DNA of 64,000 bases, from contig CAVUAA010000001.1 in the NCBI GenBank assembly GCA_963739345.1, forward strand, positions 859,749 to 923,748, written 5' to 3'. Position 1 is the first letter of the stretch. Every line of letters begins with the position of its first letter. Position numbers and translations under genes: made by a program. Positions 8,412-34,169 of the stretch are shown piece by piece. The notes below the pieces were generated by a model. It saw nothing but the letters and a program-made list of their open reading frames with translations, did not search any database and was not told the origin of the DNA. This DNA comes from an uncultured Verrucomicrobiae bacterium (GTDB lineage Bacteria > Chlamydiota > Chlamydiia > Chlamydiales > JAFEGQ01).

Positions 8412-9191
8412 CTACCTATCGGCCGATGAACCCATCCCAGTAGTGTTTGAGATGTTGTCCGAGAGGTAAGCGAGCTGCGGAATGCGCAGGTCGATGACGT
8501 GGTTTCCTTCTAGCGGACAGAGCTTCTTGTAGTTGGCAAGCGCCTGCTTAACGTTACGAGGGGGCAATCTAAGGATGTGCTGGTTGGGGGGCGCGCCGAT
8601 AATCATGACAATCTGTCGCTGGCCGCTGCTCTCGGCCCCCATCTGGGCGGTGTCAATCCGCGTAATAGGTAACGAGGGATCGAGAAGAGTGAGGGCGTAA
8701 CGAAGCGATTCGGTGGTGATTTCAGCGAGATAGAGATCTGGAAGTTGACCGTGTGAAAAGGTGAGCGGGAGGGTGTTTCCGTCGCGGTCAATGCCGTAGC
8801 CTGGAAGTTCGGGAAGAGCGGCGATAGGCTCGCGGGGAGTGTAGTCGATGTAGAGGCCGGAGGGGTGGGCCCGGTCGACGTGGGCCGAGGCGATCAGCTC
8901 CGAGGAAATAAGTCGCTTTTCGAGCGCGCGGGGATTAAGGGCATAGAGGTTGTCGGTAGCGCTCACTCCCATGAGATGAGCAAGCACGGGCGTGGGAAGT
9001 TCGATCGCCCCCCTGCTGTGCGGATAGAGAGTAGTGAGAAGAAACCGCTCGTTGAAGTGGCGCTGCCGCTCCCAATGCTTGTAGTAGAGCCAGCCGGTTG
9101 TGGCCGAGCCGGAAACCAATAGTGTCGATCCAAAGATCATCAGCAGAGAGAGATAGAGAGGAAGCTTACGTTTGCGCATAGCGAAGAGCAT
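8412..9191 (-). CDS. ftsQ: FtsQ-like cell-division protein (N-terminal TM helix + POTRA-like region)
   Basis: It is the last gene of the dcw block, directly after murC/ddl. It has a single N-terminal TM helix (LPLYLSLLMIFGSTLLVSG) followed by a periplasmic domain. The start could instead be Met5 (9179). Confidence 0.6.
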   Translation of the reverse strand: MLFAMRKRKLPLYLSLLMIFGSTLLVSGSATTGWLYYKHWERQRHFNERFLLTTLYPHSRGAIELPTPVLAHLMGVSATDNLYALNPRALEKRLISSELIASAHVDRAHPSGLYIDYTPREPIAALPELPGYGIDRDGNTLPLTFSHGQLPDLYLAEITTESLRYALTLLDPSLPITRIDTAQMGAESSGQRQIVMIIGAPPNQHILRLPPRNVKQALANYKKLCPLEGNHVIDLRIPQLAYLSDNISNTTGMGSSADR

Positions 9192-11334
9192 GAATGATTA
9201 GGTGATCGACTAGCTCGGCATGAGGAATGCCAACGCGGGCGAGCGCTTGTGGGTAGGGACTGAACGGAGTGCAGCCGGGAAAGGGGTTGATCTCGTTAAG
9301 AATTGGATTCCCCTGCTCGTCGACGAACCAGTCGATCCGGCAGAGGCCGCGACAGGCGAGGGCGGAGAAGAGCTGTTTGGAGAGTTGCTGCAGCTCAGCC
9401 GCGCACGGCAGATCGGGAGAAAAATCGACCGGGTTGCCGGTGGCAGTGTATTTCCCTTCAAAGGTGTGAACGTTGTCGCCGGCCAGTATCTCAAATGGCG
9501 GCGCGGCGAAGAGTTCCGTGGTCTCAAGAAGTGCCACTTCTACTTGACGGCCCCGGATCATCGGTTCAATGATCAGACGATCGTCGATGGCAAACACCTC
9601 TTCAATCGCCGCAAGGAGATCCTCCGCCCGATCGACCCGGATAACGCCAAACGTGGAACCTTGATGGGCCGCTTTGACGAAGACCGGATAGGCCTCTACT
9701 TCAACCGATCCGTCCCAATACTTGCGACGAAGGTCGATAAACGGTGCAGTGGGAATGCCAAGCCCCTGTGCAACGTATTTGGTGAGCGCCTTGTCCATCG
9801 CGACTGCACCGGCGGCAATTCCACATCCCACATAGGGAACCTCGAGCGCCTCAAGGAGACCCGCGGCGGTTCCGTCCTCTCCGTGCGGCCCGTGCAAGCA
9901 GGGGATCACCACATCGGCCTTCTGAATCGCTTGCAGAGGCCACTCGCTCACATCATATCGCTCAACCGAGTAGAGCTCTGCTCGCAAGTTTTTCTCAAAG
10001 AAATCGGCTGACATCTTTGAGACCTCACTCTCAAGCGATTTTCCTCCACAGAGCAGCGCTACTCTCAACGGCGCAGGTTCAAATGGCGTCGCCCAGCGGG
10101 TGATGTCGCCAGCGCCCATCATGACGACTACATCTGTCGGACGCACCTCTATCGCCGAACGGTCGGGAGCGTAGCGGGCGGGCGGGTGGCGCGCAAGCAG
10201 CGCCTGCGCATCTACTCCTTCAATCGGTGCCTCTCCCGCACTGTAGACATCGGTGATGTACATCTCATCCGCCGCATCAAAGACAAACTGATCAAGACAC
10301 TTTTGTAACCTGGAGTAGCGATGGGGTTGAAAAACAGCGATCAGCCTGCGCGGACCTATCGCAGCCCGAATCCCCTCCAACGTCGTCGCCACCTCAGTTG
10401 GATGATGAGCGTAGTCATCGATGACCAGCACGCCCCCCCTCTCCCCTTTCACTTGGCACCGCCGTCCGACACCCGGAAATGAGGCCAACCCGCTTCGCAC
10501 TGCCTCTTCATCAACACCAAGTGAGAGCGCAAGCGCCAATACACCCGCTCCGTTGAGCGCATTGTGCTCTCCCAACGCTTGAACCGTGACATCGGTGAAC
10601 GCTTCTCCCTCAATCACCGCATCAAACGTCGTTGAAAATCCCTTCGCACGAATGTTCTTTGCATTGTAGGAGGTCCCCTTCGGCTTTCGTTTGCTGAGCC
10701 ATGCATCGTTTGCACACCAGAACAGTTTTTCGCTTTGCGCAAAAAACTGTTCATAGGCCGCCCACATTGCCTTTTCATCGCCGTAGTGATCGAGATGATC
10801 GGCTTCCACTCCCGTCACAATCGCCGCATGCGGCCGATACTTAGTGAAAGTCCCATCGCTCTCATCCGCTTCTGCCACAAAGTACTTGCCAGTTCCATGC
10901 CGTCCGTTTCGCTCGAGCCCTGGCAGCACCCCCCCAATCGCAAAAGCGGGATCTAACCCCGCCTCCATTAACACCCACGCCAGCATCGCCGACGTCGTCG
11001 TTTTCCCATGAGTGCCCGTCACCGCCAACACCTCAAACCCTTGCATCAGCTCACACAAAAGATCGGCCCGATGCACCGTCCTGCACCCCAAAGCCTTCGC
11101 CTTTTGAAACTCGACATTGTCCGGCTGAACCGCTGAGCTATAGATGACAGTCGCACCCGCAACCAGCTGCTCCCCTGCTTGTGCCGTGTCGACAGCCGCC
11201 CCCTCTTTTCGCAGCGCCGTCACGAGTGCGCTGTCGCGCAGATCGCTCCCACTCACCTCCATCTTCTGATCGAGCATCACCCTTGCGAGTGCGCTCATTC
11301 CAATGCCGCCGATGCCGATGAAGTGATAAGTCAT
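9166..11334 (-). CDS. murC: bifunctional UDP-N-acetylmuramate--L-alanine ligase / D-alanine--D-alanine ligase (MurC-Ddl fusion)
   Basis: 722 aa. The N-terminal half has the Mur ligase motifs GIGGIGMSALA and GTHGKTTTSAML. The C-terminal half is Ddl-like (VALLCGGKSLESEVS...LHGPHGEDGTAAGLLEALEVPYVGCG...EINPFPG). This fusion is a hallmark of Chlamydiae. Confidence 0.93.
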   Translation of the reverse strand: MTYHFIGIGGIGMSALARVMLDQKMEVSGSDLRDSALVTALRKEGAAVDTAQAGEQLVAGATVIYSSAVQPDNVEFQKAKALGCRTVHRADLLCELMQGFEVLAVTGTHGKTTTSAMLAWVLMEAGLDPAFAIGGVLPGLERNGRHGTGKYFVAEADESDGTFTKYRPHAAIVTGVEADHLDHYGDEKAMWAAYEQFFAQSEKLFWCANDAWLSKRKPKGTSYNAKNIRAKGFSTTFDAVIEGEAFTDVTVQALGEHNALNGAGVLALALSLGVDEEAVRSGLASFPGVGRRCQVKGERGGVLVIDDYAHHPTEVATTLEGIRAAIGPRRLIAVFQPHRYSRLQKCLDQFVFDAADEMYITDVYSAGEAPIEGVDAQALLARHPPARYAPDRSAIEVRPTDVVVMMGAGDITRWATPFEPAPLRVALLCGGKSLESEVSKMSADFFEKNLRAELYSVERYDVSEWPLQAIQKADVVIPCLHGPHGEDGTAAGLLEALEVPYVGCGIAAGAVAMDKALTKYVAQGLGIPTAPFIDLRRKYWDGSVEVEAYPVFVKAAHQGSTFGVIRVDRAEDLLAAIEEVFAIDDRLIIEPMIRGRQVEVALLETTELFAAPPFEILAGDNVHTFEGKYTATGNPVDFSPDLPCAAELQQLSKQLFSALACRGLCRIDWFVDEQGNPILNEINPFPGCTPFSPYPQALARVGIPHAELVDHLIIHALRYAQT

Positions 11335-12410
11335 GAATCCAATTCTAGGTGGTTGAGGATCGTGGTGTAAAGGTCGGTCTCTGGCTCGGGTGCGGAAGGA
11401 GGGTTTAGGGGGGTGTCGAGGGCGGCGAGAAGACGCTCTTCAGTGAGGTCTGTTTCGAGGATTTTGAGGGCGCCACCCCACGAGACTGCGCAGTCAGCAT
11501 TGGCGTTTTGATGGTCGTCAGCTGCATGAGGGTAGGGAATGAGGATGGCCGAGATGCGGTAGGCGAGGTGCTCGGCGATGGAGGAGGCACCAGCGCGCAT
11601 GATGACACGATCGGCAGCAGACCAGACGAGGGGCATGCGGGTTTCAAAGGGGACGACGTGCGCAGGAAAAGGATAATGGGGAAGCGGGTTGCCGTGGCCG
11701 GTGAGGTGGATCACTTGGATGTTTGGGCGGGTAGAGAGGGCGGCGTGGGCGATCTGATTCAGACGAACGGCTCCTTGCGAGCCGCCGAGGACGGCGATGG
11801 TGGTGCGGTCGGGTTCGAGGCCTAGGGCGATGCGGGCAGCTTGAGGGGTGTGGGATTCGATGGGGCGGAGGGGAAGGGGGATGTGGATCCCATTATCGAT
11901 GGGAGTATTGGGAAACTGAACACCAGTGAAGAGGGCCCGTTTGGCGAAAAGGCGGTTGACAAGACCGGGAGTGGCATTCCCTTCGTGGAGAATGATGGGG
12001 GTGCGACCGAGGGTGGCAGCGAGAAGGACCGGGAATGTATGGAAGCTTCCAAACCCAACCACCAGATCGGGTTTGAAGGACGAGAGAACTCCTAAGCTTT
12101 GGAGGGTGCCATTTGCAATGCGCAGAGGCTTGCGCGGGCGACCGGAGGGGACCTCGACGAAACGGAACTCGCCGCGGGCAAAGAAGGGCTTGTCGGTTAG
12201 CCCGCCGGCGACAAAGAGAATTTCAGGGCTAGAGGGATGCGCCTGAAGCTGGCGTGCCAACGCCTGTGCGGGAATCAGATGCCCCCCAGTCCCCCCTGCT
12301 GTGATGACGATCCGAACAGCGACCGAGGGGTCAGGCCTGACAATTGGACATTTGCTGGCAAATGTCCAATTGTCAGGCCTGACCCCATCGCTGCTCTTCT
12401 TTTTTCCCAT
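11331..12410 (-). CDS. murG: UDP-N-acetylglucosamine--N-acetylmuramyl-(pentapeptide) pyrophosphoryl-undecaprenol GlcNAc transferase
   Basis: ITAGGTGGHLIPAQALARQL motif and dcw context. The first ~28 codons include 20 codons supplied by the 60-bp palindrome at 12327-12386. No alternative start codon lies between the palindrome and the GGTGGH motif. Confidence 0.88.
   Translation of the reverse strand: MGKKKSSDGVRPDNWTFASKCPIVRPDPSVAVRIVITAGGTGGHLIPAQALARQLQAHPSSPEILFVAGGLTDKPFFARGEFRFVEVPSGRPRKPLRIANGTLQSLGVLSSFKPDLVVGFGSFHTFPVLLAATLGRTPIILHEGNATPGLVNRLFAKRALFTGVQFPNTPIDNGIHIPLPLRPIESHTPQAARIALGLEPDRTTIAVLGGSQGAVRLNQIAHAALSTRPNIQVIHLTGHGNPLPHYPFPAHVVPFETRMPLVWSAADRVIMRAGASSIAEHLAYRISAILIPYPHAADDHQNANADCAVSWGGALKILETDLTEERLLAALDTPLNPPSAPEPETDLYTTILNHLELDS
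12327..12386. repeat. 60-bp near-perfect palindrome (29-nt arms, 2-nt centre) carrying two GTCAGGCCTGAC cores
   Basis: GGGGTCAGGCCTGACAATTGGACATTTGC-TG-GCAAATGTCCAATTGTCAGGCCTGACCCC. It shares the GGGGTCAGGCCTGAC terminus with the element at 34043-34163. Confidence 0.9.
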
Positions 12411-13473
12411 CCACCTCCAAGATTAGCGCAAGGGCGATGATATTAGCCATGAGAGAGGAGCCCCCCTGGCTGAAAAAAGGAAGGTTGAGTCCTTTGGGGG
12501 GCATAATGCCGGAGACGACGCCAAGGTTGAGAAAGGCTTGAATGGCGATGAGGGAGGTAAGGGTAACGGCGAGATAGAACCCGGCGGGGTCGCGGGCGCG
12601 GCAGGCGATCCGGTAGCCGAGGAGGGCGAAGAACATGTAGAGGAGAATGAGGGCGAGGACGCCAACAAGGCCACTCTCTTCGGCGTAGACGGCCGCAATG
12701 TAGTCGTTCTGCGCTTCGGGCAAGTAGGTGAGCTTCTGCATGCTCTGGCCAAGGCCGCGCCCAAGGATGCCGCCGGCGCCAGCGGCGATTTTTGCTTGAT
12801 GCGGTTGGTGCCCTTTGCCGAGCAGGTCAAGCTCGGGATGCATATAGACCTGCATCCGCTTCTGCACATAGGGAAGCTGCCAGGCGGCAAGAGCGCCAAG
12901 CAGCGCAAGGGCCACCATGGGAGCGAGCCAGTAGCGCCCCTTGACGCCGGTGATGAGGCAGACGACCACAAGGGCGGAGGCGATGATGGCGGTGGTCCCG
13001 TTGTCGGGCTCGAGCATGATCAGGGCGAGTGGAACGGCGGCAAGAGCAGCAAAGCGAGCGAAACGAAGCCAAGTGAGCTCAGCACCAGCGAGGGTGTGGA
13101 TGGCAAAGAGGGGAAGAAAGATCTTGACGAATTCGGAAGGTTGGACGGTGAGGCCGGCGGCGCCGATCCACCGCCTAGCGCCGTTACGGACGACGCCAAT
13201 GCCAGGAACAAAGACGAGGGCGAGCAGGACGCAGAGGACGATCATGATCCCAAAGCTGTGATCAAGGAGGGTCCGGTAGCCGATGAAGCGGAGCAAGAGG
13301 CCGGCCCCTAGGCCGAGCAGCGCGTAGATCAACTGACGGGTGACGGCGGCGTGGGTACTCACCTTGAGATGACGATCGATGACGTCGGCCGACGAGGTAT
13401 TGAACACCATCACCAAGCCGATCGCAAAGATGACCACTGCGCAGATGAGAAGGAGGTATCGACTCCTGATCAC
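12373..13473 (-). CDS. ftsW: SEDS-family peptidoglycan glycosyltransferase FtsW
   Basis: 366-aa polytopic membrane protein with SEDS motifs (QPSEFVK, LPEAQNDYIAAVYAEE, PFFSQGGSS). It lies between murD/LysM and murG. Its stop codon TGA lies inside the palindromic element. Confidence 0.88.
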   Translation of the reverse strand: MIRSRYLLLICAVVIFAIGLVMVFNTSSADVIDRHLKVSTHAAVTRQLIYALLGLGAGLLLRFIGYRTLLDHSFGIMIVLCVLLALVFVPGIGVVRNGARRWIGAAGLTVQPSEFVKIFLPLFAIHTLAGAELTWLRFARFAALAAVPLALIMLEPDNGTTAIIASALVVVCLITGVKGRYWLAPMVALALLGALAAWQLPYVQKRMQVYMHPELDLLGKGHQPHQAKIAAGAGGILGRGLGQSMQKLTYLPEAQNDYIAAVYAEESGLVGVLALILLYMFFALLGYRIACRARDPAGFYLAVTLTSLIAIQAFLNLGVVSGIMPPKGLNLPFFSQGGSSLMANIIALALILEVDGKKEEQRWGQA

Positions 13474-14126
13474 TAGCGGACGCGAATCTTGTCGCCGGGC
13501 TTCAATTTGCGAGCGGTGTTCTCATTGAGATCGTTCAGAGCAAGGAGCTCATCGAGAGGAATCCGGTACTTCATCGCAATCGACCACGGGTTATCGCCGC
13601 TCCGAATGGTGTAAAAGTCAGCCTCTTTAGTCGCTACCTTCGCGGTGTCGGAGGAGATGCGTCGACGGCGGATGCCATCTTTCTTTGCCAATGGGACACG
13701 GAGCTTCTGTCCAATTTGGAGAACAGTCGACGAGAGGCTGTTCGCATCCATGATCGATTCTACCGACGAGTCGTTGGCGCGGGCGATCTTGTCGAGTGAG
13801 TCTCCTTTCTTAACAGCCACCTCGACAAAATTGGGCTCTTCAATAACGGGAGCTGCTGTTTTAACGGCGGGGGTGGCAATGACGAGCGGCTCTGAAGCCT
13901 GCAGCTCGGCAAGCACCTGATCAACTTCATCGCCGACGACATAGCGCTTAGCGATGTCAGGCGCGGTCTTGACGGGGGCGCGCAACGTAACCGGCGGGGC
14001 GATCGGTTCGGCCTGAACCAGTGTTTGGCTTGTTCTCTTGTCCCCGCTCACTGCGGTAGCAAAGAGGACCACGAGGAGTCCCACATTGATCAGGACTGCA
14101 ATAAGGATGGTGTCACGCCGACTCAT
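13473..14126 (-). CDS. membrane-anchored protein with two LysM domains (occupies the NlpD position of the chlamydial dcw cluster)
   Basis: N-terminal TM helix (ILIAVLINVGLLVVLFATAV). Two LysM-like repeats: VAVKKGDSLDKIARANDSSVESIMDANSLSSTVLQIGQKLRVP and YTIRSGDNPWSIAMKYRIPLDELLALNDLNENTARKLKPGDKIRV. No M23 peptidase HxxxD/HxH motifs were seen. Confidence 0.75.
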   Translation of the reverse strand: MSRRDTILIAVLINVGLLVVLFATAVSGDKRTSQTLVQAEPIAPPVTLRAPVKTAPDIAKRYVVGDEVDQVLAELQASEPLVIATPAVKTAAPVIEEPNFVEVAVKKGDSLDKIARANDSSVESIMDANSLSSTVLQIGQKLRVPLAKKDGIRRRRISSDTAKVATKEADFYTIRSGDNPWSIAMKYRIPLDELLALNDLNENTARKLKPGDKIRVR

Positions 14127-14140
14127 GCTTTTTAGTCTCC

Positions 14141-15307
14141 TTATAACTGATTAACCAGCTCCCTAAATCTGTCTCCGCGAGCTGCATAATTCTCAAACAT
14201 ATCGAAGCTTGCGCAGCCCGGGCTGAGAAGCACAATCGTACCCGGTTCTGCCTTTTCCCGCGCACTTTCCACCGCCTCTTCGAATGTTTGGCAGTGAGAG
14301 AGCGAACAGTGACCGTCTAATGCACTTGCAATCTGCTCGGCAGCCTCACCAATAATACAACAATGGGAGACTTTGTCGCTAAAGAGAGTCGCCCATCCGT
14401 CGTAGCTCTCCCCTTTTCCTCTGCCGCCGGCGATGAGAACGATGGGGCCTGGCAACCCTTCAACGGCACGTTTAGTCGCGGCGACGTTAGTCCCCTTGCT
14501 GTCGTTGATGAAGGTGATCCCACCTACCTCTCTCACTGATTCAAGGCGATGTGGGGGCTTTTTGAAGGTGTCCCACGCTTCGTCGAACACCTCAAGTCCC
14601 ACCCCAAGCGCTTGGCAGAGTGCATAGGCCGCCAGCCCATTTTCGACGTCGGGACTCACTGTCTTGCTATAGCAGAGCGGATGAAACGTTTCGACAGCGG
14701 AGAGGTCAAACTGGGAGGCGAGTCCCTCTGGTGCGAACAGCGGCGCCCCTGGCTTAAGGGAGCTGGCAATGCGCAGCTTCGCCTTTGCATACGATTCAAG
14801 CGAGCCGTGACGATCGAGATGATCTGGAGTAATATTGAGGATGACAGCGGCATCGAGTACTTTCGATTCGAGCGTTTCAAGCTGATAAGAGCTGAGCTCA
14901 ATGACGGCGATCTCGTCATGCTCGAGATGGGAGACCCCTTCGGTAAGCGGAGTGCCGACGTTTCCAAGCGCCCGCGCCTTCTTGCCGGCCACTTTAAGTA
15001 CATGTGTGACCAACAGCGTGGTGGTGGTCTTTCCGTTGGTGCCGGTGATGCCCACCGCCCGATTGGTAAGGTAGCGGCAGGCGAGCTCCACCTCACCGAT
15101 CACTTCAATCCCCGCCTCCCTCGCCGCCCGCACCAGTCTGTGCGTAGGCGGCACTCCCGGAGAGAGCACGGCCAACTCAAAGTTCATCTCTTGAGGCATC
15201 TCGGGAGCTGTCTTGTCGTCGAAACAGACCACGTCGTAGCCGTGCTCCTTCAAAAATCTTGCGGCGCTCTGGCCGCTAATTCCCATTCCGATGACTAGTG
15301 CTTTCAT
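14141..15307 (-). CDS. murD: UDP-N-acetylmuramoylalanine--D-glutamate ligase
   Basis: Mur ligase P-loop GITGTNGKTTTTLL, the DHLDRHGS motif, and its position between mraY and ftsW. Confidence 0.88.
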   Translation of the reverse strand: MKALVIGMGISGQSAARFLKEHGYDVVCFDDKTAPEMPQEMNFELAVLSPGVPPTHRLVRAAREAGIEVIGEVELACRYLTNRAVGITGTNGKTTTTLLVTHVLKVAGKKARALGNVGTPLTEGVSHLEHDEIAVIELSSYQLETLESKVLDAAVILNITPDHLDRHGSLESYAKAKLRIASSLKPGAPLFAPEGLASQFDLSAVETFHPLCYSKTVSPDVENGLAAYALCQALGVGLEVFDEAWDTFKKPPHRLESVREVGGITFINDSKGTNVAATKRAVEGLPGPIVLIAGGRGKGESYDGWATLFSDKVSHCCIIGEAAEQIASALDGHCSLSHCQTFEEAVESAREKAEPGTIVLLSPGCASFDMFENYAARGDRFRELVNQL

Positions 15308-31883: not shown

Positions 31884-34042
<2,159 letters not shown>

Positions 34043-34163
34043 TTTGGGGTCAGGCCTGACATCATGACATCTCTCAACTTTTGCTTTGTCAGTCCGGGTT
34101 AATACGGCCAACTGTGACAACATATTTGTTTAGAGATGTCATGATGTCAGGCCTGACCCCAAA
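34043..34163. repeat. palindromic element: perfect 32-nt inverted arms around a 57-nt loop, GTCAGGCCTGAC cores
   Basis: TTTGGGGTCAGGCCTGACATCATGACATCTCT (34043-34074) is the exact reverse complement of 34132-34163. It starts 1 nt after the groEL stop. Confidence 0.9.
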
Positions 34164-34169
34164 TTAGAA

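Follow-up and report, generated by a model that had tools for sequence, protein, structure and literature searches.

A palindromic repeat doublet in the ftsW/murG overlap of an uncultured chlamydial bacterium, probably a tolerated TIRtron-type insertion

Ogata et al. (2000) are reported to have described palindromic elements in Rickettsia. These Rickettsia palindromic elements (RPEs), which are inserted in frame in genes, have since been reviewed (PMC10969869), and intragenic dimers of repetitive extragenic palindromic (REP) elements are likewise known to code for 20–30 amino acids, frequently near protein N-termini (PMC3733652). Di Nocera et al. (2013) described TIRYT genes and named the units that they form TIRtrons, with terminal inverted repeats (TIRs) that carry the motif GGGGWSAS; these TIRs sometimes form repeat families of singles, dimers and clusters which were called 'moderately abundant' (PMC3733652). 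TIRYTs were later placed in TnpA_REP subclass 2.1, in which the Bac_DnaA_C type makes up group 2.1.2 (Quentin et al. 2018, PMC6006769). Here we describe a 60-bp palindrome at the overlap of ftsW and murG in a stretch of 64,000 nucleotides, called the window below, from an uncultured bacterium of the Chlamydiales (assembly GCA_963739345.1, contig CAVUAA010000001.1, positions 859,749 to 923,748). We consider it probable, at roughly 80%, that the 60-mer is the core of a non-autonomous mobile element of ~87 bp, a doublet of TIRtron TIRs, which landed in the ftsW/murG overlap and was tolerated there.

The features on which this reading depends are given here, with L001 denoting the metagenome contig that carries the closest relative.

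12327–12386, minus strand: perfect palindrome of 60 bp (29 + 2 + 29 nt), reading GGGGTCAGGCCTGACAATTGGACATTTGC-TG-GCAAATGTCCAATTGTCAGGCCTGACCCC
12315–12401, minus strand: full insertion of 87 bp, or 29 codons, from the alignment with the empty site of L001
12387–12396, minus strand: outer left arm GAGCAGCGAT, pairing with 12314–12323 with a 3-nt bulge (RNA fold)
12314–12323, minus strand: outer right arm GTCGCTGTTC (RNA fold; repeat search)
12373–12375, minus strand: ftsW stop codon TGA, inside the element, provided by the GTCAGGCCTGAC core in the upstream arm
12410–12408, minus strand: murG start codon ATG, with GGAGG upstream, homologous to the L001 start and 8 codons before the 60-mer
12373–13473, minus strand: ftsW, 366 aa, with the FTSW_RODA_SPOVE domain at residues 7–358
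11331–12410, minus strand: murG, 359 aa, with the Glyco_transf_28 N-domain (Pfam) from residue 34

The arms of the palindrome are perfect, as a preliminary description made from the letters alone had stated: the 29-nt arm GGGGTCAGGCCTGACAATTGGACATTTGC occurs exactly once per strand with 0 mismatches, where 0 were expected from 100 shuffles. In an alignment of 22 sequences (the window MurG and 21 homologues, that of L001 included), an extra N-terminal segment is present in the window MurG only and is lacking in 21/21 homologues, and those homologues that cover the N-terminus start 3–10 residues before the GGTGGH loop. The closest relative (P0002), whose MurG is 74% identical, is encoded on L001 in the same LysM-ftsW-murG order; its murG begins with ATG CAG AAG CGG ATC GTC (MQKRIVITAGGTGGH) and its FtsW, of 385 aa, extends ~95 nt into murG. 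At the DNA level the flanks of window and L001 are near-identical, and the alignment is interrupted by a single clean 87-bp gap in L001. Removal of 12315–12401 in silico gives a MurG that begins MGKRIVITAGGTGGH, as compared with MQKRIVITAGGTGGH in L001, and returns FtsW from its present 366 aa, 19 residues short of the L001 protein, to 385 aa, equal to the L001 length; the restored tail, which ends in …DRHHSRGDWGASDSRTGVGTPASGASL and a stop, is collinear with …DRHHSRRNRGPSDPGTGAGLPAAGAPL and a stop in L001. Inspection of the ftsW-murG junction in relatives, proposed in the preliminary description as a check, has therefore defined the empty site, and on the strength of these alignments the segment is confirmed as an insertion rather than native sequence. 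The long overlap of ftsW and murG is ancestral to the window lineage. On L001 (region 1866–2064) the public murG call starts at 2064 (274 aa) and lacks the G-loop; the true ATG lies at 1893, and the miscall apparently arose because ftsW overlaps this ATG by ~95 nt.

The insertion is larger than the palindrome that marks it. The preliminary description had taken the 60-mer itself as an in-frame insertion supplying 20 MurG codons; that the sequence is inserted and that the frame is kept both hold (87 = 3 x 29), while the size had to be revised to 87 bp and 29 codons. The insert consists of the perfect 60-mer and, on its two sides, 15 and 12 nucleotides that contain imperfect outer arms, and its limits are uncertain by a few nucleotides owing to an AAG/AAA ambiguity. 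An ungapped outer inverted repeat (7/13 matches) was replaced by the bulged register, in which the outer arms form 10 RNA pairs, 8/10 of them Watson-Crick at the DNA level. The outer left arm resembles the outer flank, CGCAGCATT abutting GGGG, of repeat copies in the chlamydial genome JABDEO.

Both genes read into the element in different frames. Depending on the frame, the self-complementary 12-mer core GTCAGGCCTGAC reads VRPD, SGLT or QA-stop, identically on both strands, and both genes remained unbroken because this core is open in two frames and carries a stop in the third, whichever strand is read. FtsW now ends …EEQRWGQA, with its TGA inside the element as first described, and MurG uses the VRPD frame, gaining 29 residues. 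In the murG frame the 60-mer encodes GVRPDNWTFASKCPIVRPDP; the N-terminus of the protein is MGKKKSSDGVRPDNWTFASKCPIVRPDPSVAVRIVITAGGTGGH, laid out as MGKKKSSD-GVRPDNWTFASKCPIVRPDP-SVAV-RIVITAGGTGGH, and a peptide spanning the insert would read, for example, …GVRPDNWTFASK. The codons from the palindrome to the G-loop (TCG GTC GCT GTT CGG ATC GTC ATC ACA GCA GGG GGG ACT GGG GGG CAT) include no in-frame ATG, GTG or TTG, in agreement with the earlier claim that no other start lies between palindrome and GGTGGH, and an alternative murG start downstream of the element was ruled out on this ground. With the murG ATG aligned to that of L001 and no canonical start between the element and the G-loop, the insert appears to be translated, as had been proposed.

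What the insertion changes in the two proteins seems limited. An AlphaFold2 model of MurG built on the 22-sequence alignment has a mean predicted local distance difference test score (pLDDT) of 90.3 and a predicted template-modelling score (pTM) of 0.87; residues 1–24 have pLDDT <50, a low value that is expected anyway where no homologue is aligned, and the first strand spans residues 33–37. The model indicates that the MurG core fold is undisturbed and shows no more than that; the added residues, which precede strand beta-1 and the GGTGGH loop, are probably disordered. The FtsW domain (residues 7–358) is intact despite the new stop. We suggest that three features let the copy survive: its length of 87 bp is divisible by three, MurG gained only this probably disordered extension, and FtsW lost only a tail that belongs to no domain.

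At the RNA level the extended hairpin is predicted at -76.6 kcal/mol (z = -10). It starts 25 nt past the murG AUG and holds the ftsW stop, and ribosomes translating ftsW must therefore melt it. These properties, together with arms that are both still perfect and the known effects of REP-type repeats on mRNA fate (PMC3733652), would suit a hairpin co-opted as an RNA element at ftsW-murG, such as a site for cleavage by RNase III or other processing, or a modulator of translational coupling, or else a functional MurG peptide. We nonetheless hold co-option to be improbable: the closest relative and the 20 other homologues are without the hairpin, one genome only carries it, perfect arms are typical of young copies across the family described below, and on the sense strand no U-run follows the hairpin. 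An intrinsic terminator on that strand was ruled out for the same lack of a U-run. On the plus strand, antisense to the division and cell wall (dcw) genes, the sequence TTCTTTTTT at 12397–12405 follows the extended hairpin, and the two together would resemble an intrinsic terminator for antisense transcription. A search of Rfam gave no match to the hairpin at gathering score; the sub-threshold matches were to eukaryotic microRNA hairpin models only, by shape alone.

The palindrome belongs to a repeat family with a second member in the window.

34046–34160, strand not assigned: second member of the family, 115 bp when counted from GGGG to CCCC, within an inverted repeat at 34039–34167

The core GTCAGGCCTGAC occurs 4 times in the 64-kb window, where 0.19 occurrences are expected by chance, and these four sites are both arms of the murG copy and both arms of the second element. 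A core shared with this other element had been noticed before, and we have refined the limits of that element to those given. The two elements have the terminal 16-mer GGGGTCAGGCCTGACA in common; with 3 mismatches allowed, no further copies of this 16-mer were found in the window. The second element is situated directly 3' of the TAA stop of an open reading frame (ORF) at 32594–34042. A different repeat family is represented at 63751–63877 by two inverted copies of the 41-nt palindrome AAATTGTCACATTCTGGGACAGTCCCCAATTGTGACAATTT. They are separated by 45 nt, their complementarity is 100%, and the first of them overlaps the TAG stop of ORF 62999–63793.

We scanned a genome collection, which does not include the source contig, for two cores 29–89 nt apart and found 114 stretches in other genomes, mostly metagenome-assembled genomes (MAGs) of Chlamydiae. 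The element had been presented earlier as one of a dispersed family, a claim that would have failed if the motif were confined to the window; the second copy and these 114 stretches bear it out. Eleven Chlamydiae MAGs are represented, and the fetched loci of three of them contain 79, 33 and 83 oriented arms. By contig prefix, ~38 stretches come from JABDEO01, 17 from CALOCV01 (Parachlamydiales), 16 from CAWACC01 (Parachlamydiaceae) and others from eight further chlamydial genomes. In all genome groups the arm consensus is (TT)GGGGTCAGGCCTGAC-A-(3–4 nt)-GACA-yT. The CALOCV copies are palindromes of 53 nt, core to core, with the structure TTGGGGTCAGGCCTGACATTCGGACATTTG-nnnn-reverse complement, which is essentially the architecture of the 60-mer; longer subfamilies, with lengths of 71 and 98 nt, occur in other genomes, and one genome has tandem arrays. 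The repeats are thus dispersed as dimers and clusters, with two dimers in the window and hairpin dimers and tandem arrays among the 114 stretches. A scan of viral contigs with the 16-mer returned 5 single matches and no paired arms. Two groups of matches were not counted as family: those in Myxococcales palsa_1150 are to a different, directly repeated sequence, CTG-GTCAGGCCTGAC-CTCCATG, and those in Pseudomonas, Streptomyces and Mycobacterium lack the GGGG-…-ACA/GACA arm.

In view of this family, an origin of the MurG segment in place, as a local hairpin or a lineage-specific extension of native sequence, has a negligible probability. Some chlamydial MurGs do carry up to ~10 additional residues at the N-terminus, but the 16-mer termini identical to those of 34046–34160, the presence of homologous arms in 11 further Chlamydiae genomes and the clean gap in L001 all speak against it.

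The same arm type is also present in some MAGs of Gammaproteobacteria/Coxiellaceae, Syntrophomonas, Elusimicrobiota and Tissierellia, and the 15-nt core is identical across several phyla, an identity to be read with the fact that the search pattern itself required that core. Arms with the identical 15-nt core were seen in Gammaproteobacteria/Coxiellaceae and Tissierellia MAGs at L099 1790–2987 and L082 1724–2743 and in loci L009, L019, L030, L057, L075 and L102, and L099 and L082 carry the TIRYT gene as well; some of these non-chlamydial MAGs are from the same sample series as the chlamydial ones. The distribution hints at horizontal spread of the family. In the Parachlamydiaceae MAG CAWACC01 (L086 5430–5700; also L055, L085 and L094), arrays contain stubs that end at GGGGTCA, and the loci of this genome hold 71 truncated stubs as compared with 97 full 15-mers. 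This pattern suggests that breaks or joins have recurred at the point between GGGGTCA and GGCCTGAC.

We looked at the interiors of outward-facing arm pairs 0.4–5 kb apart in the fetched loci. Such interiors in L039, L081 and L099 contain an ORF of 315–335 aa, and a homologous ORF is present in L082; the arms flank the gene in inverted orientation in all four loci, which come from four different genomes, each distinct from the source genome. A TIRYT is a Y1/HUH transposase whose C-terminal helix-turn-helix is of the Bac_DnaA_C, HTH_23 or HTH_28 type. Pfam assigns to these ORFs the domains Y1_Tnp (IS200-like, PF01797) and Bac_DnaA_C (PF08299), and the sole sequence match in the PDB is to DnaA domain IV. 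Two complete 53-nt palindromes, with the same sequence as the dispersed copies, enclose the L081 gene. The transposase ORFs end inside an arm, with C-termini …WGQA, …ECQA and …SQA directly before the stop; the L081 protein ends in …WGQA, like the window FtsW. The transposase family has >5,000 matches at E <= 1e-20, some of them named RayT or REP-associated tyrosine transposase, and many contigs that carry such a gene have a length of only ~1 kb.

Insertion contexts were compared across the hairpin-type copies. A flanking direct repeat of at least 2 nt is present at 6/79 copies, which is about the chance level, and the alignment with L001 reveals no target-site duplication at the murG copy. The lack of target-site duplications fits elements of the HUH/Y1 class and speaks against a miniature inverted-repeat transposable element (MITE) of DDE type. 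A classical MITE, the deletion derivative of an insertion sequence with a DDE transposase moved by cut-and-paste, would also account for the terminal inverted repeats, the small size and the many copies. We regard it as quite improbable, given that target-site duplications do not exceed chance over 79 copies, that the sole gene repeatedly bracketed by arms in the fetched loci encodes a Y1/HUH transposase, and that the arm agrees with GGGGWSAS, the motif known from TIRYT repeats (PMC3733652). Sampling of 8-kb chunks that surround perfect arm pairs turned up no DDE enzyme between paired, oriented arms. The label MITE-like used in the preliminary description can be sharpened to a doublet of the TIRs that flank a Y1 transposase (TIRYT/TIRtron, REPIN-like), without target-site duplications.

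No long open frame runs through the majority of the 80 hairpin copies, and others are situated at gene 3' ends; intragenic copies are rare in the family. Besides murG, the clearest internal in-frame case is at L034 5539–5641 in the Chlamydiales MAG MFD01213.bin.2.138, where a 103-bp perfect palindrome of the family (range 71–103 bp) lies in frame in a nuoN-like ORF with a Proton_antipo_M domain, at about residues 30–63. From its sequence this is likely a second in-frame insertion in a housekeeping gene.

The agreement with TIRtrons is close. All four window arms and every genome-group consensus begin with GGGGTCAG, which fits GGGGWSAS (PMC3733652, PMC6006769); the arms lie on both sides of the gene for a Y1_Tnp protein whose C-terminus is Bac_DnaA_C-like, overlap that ORF at its 3' end, and also occur as singles, dimers and clusters. 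Among the differences, the family is far more abundant here than the 'moderately abundant' TIR families reported (PMC3733652), and the murG copy is intragenic. The literature we searched contained no report of this repeat family in Chlamydiae. REPINs (Bertels & Rainey 2011, PMC3116915; Nunvar 2010) are similar in being non-autonomous inverted doublets of short palindromic units that form a long hairpin, in having no target-site duplication, and in having a cognate HUH/Y1 gene flanked by the same repeats (PMC3116915). They differ in that the arms here start with (TT)GGGG and have no GTAG or CGTC tag, and canonical REPINs are extragenic whereas the murG copy is intragenic; the transposase, unlike a RAYT, scores under the cut-off for RayT equivalogs and carries an additional DnaA-like domain. 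By analogy, the element is in functional terms a counterpart of REPINs and MITEs. With RPEs and REP dimers it shares an in-frame palindrome in a housekeeping gene that adds 20–30 or more residues, often N-terminally, with the fold kept. The resemblance to RPEs is functional only; the phylum and, presumably, the sequence family differ, and RPE-1 measures ~100–150 bp. In addition, here one insertion hits two overlapping genes, providing a stop for one and codons for the other. The earlier verdict that such an insertion is unusual was overstated, in-frame palindromic insertions coding for 20–30 aa being documented (PMC3733652, PMC10969869).

Based on these comparisons, we propose the following course of events. 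Two inverted TIR copies of a TIRtron, whose Y1/HUH transposase would carry a C-terminal helix-turn-helix like DnaA domain IV, would form the element, and one copy would have been moved by a TIRYT via single-stranded DNA and inserted 2–3 codons past the murG start, in what was then the ~95-nt ftsW overlap. The murG frame would have stayed open through the core, adding 29 codons, and the ftsW frame would have met the TGA, for a net loss of 19 residues from a tail whose codons had formerly lain inside murG in another frame. If a tyrosine transposase did mobilise the element via single-stranded DNA, the source genome would have, or have had, a TIRYT enzyme. The insert is presumably neutral, and we take the murG copy to be, most likely, selfish DNA that was tolerated and no adaptation.

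Several points weigh against the proposal of a tolerated TIRtron doublet. To our knowledge, TIRYT transposition has never been demonstrated experimentally. The window contains no transposase of TIRYT type, and none from the source contig, of 1,252,598 bp, is among the best 120 homologues of the L081 protein, a result that is uninformative either way. The best NCBIfam model for the transposases, REP-associated tyrosine transposase NF047646, scores 65–71 bits as compared with a curated cut-off of 80. The exact arm variants of the window, GTCAGGCCTGACAATTGGACAT and GGTCAGGCCTGACATCATGACAT, gave 0 matches each in the metagenome collection, and the low pLDDT of the MurG insert, expected where no homologue aligns, does not by itself speak for disorder. 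In the literature, too, TIRYT transposition is treated as a hypothesis (PMC3733652). Finally, the insertion is known from one assembly, one cluster member and one contig. Its occurrence in one assembly only, and the ability of chimeric reads to yield perfect palindromes, could point to an assembly or sequencing artefact such as a palindromic chimera in a long-read MAG. An artefact is very improbable, however: the sequence belongs to a family that recurs in many independent assemblies, its outer arms have diverged, two frames are exactly kept (87 = 3 x 29), and all conserved residues of MurG are present.

The remaining genes around the insertion are as follows.

14141–15307, minus strand: murD (Pfam)
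13473–14126, minus strand: LysM protein (Pfam)
9166–11334, minus strand: murC-ddl fusion (Pfam)

This gene order, with its murC-ddl fusion, is what we take to be the chlamydial dcw arrangement. The G+C content of the window, ~56%, is high for Chlamydiae. Where their source is named, the MurG homologues are for the most part chlamydial (Chlamydia-type, Simkania, Candidatus Protochlamydia-type and Rhabdochlamydia-type) and are ~36–46% identical. We conclude that the window lineage is deep and poorly sampled, because beyond L001 the nearest MurG relatives are only ~46% identical.

In-frame palindromic insertions and TIRYT-linked repeats are already established. What is new is the lineage, the Chlamydiae, in several MAGs of which the family is abundant, and a single copy that re-terminates one essential gene and extends the one overlapping it. 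A bolder reading, which we think unlikely though worth stating, is that the GGGGTCAGGCCTGAC arm marks a very successful, uncharacterised TIRYT-driven lineage across Chlamydiae and partly co-occurring bacteria, in which the breakpoint between GGGGTCA and GGCCTGAC may be readable from genomes, and/or that the murG copy has been co-opted as an RNA hairpin setting the ftsW:murG ratio; if this were true, TIRYT transposition would become testable with defined substrates. The tolerated insertion itself connects a repeat family of high copy number with the little-studied TIRYT transposases and offers concrete DNA substrates for transposition tests. Such repeats also break assemblies, and gene callers can miss a true murG start beneath an ftsW overlap, as on L001. 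With an empty site in a relative, the locus is a natural experiment in which two overlapping essential cell-wall genes were rewritten and neither was broken, and through it the Chlamydiae would join the lineages whose housekeeping proteins include stretches translated from palindromic selfish DNA.

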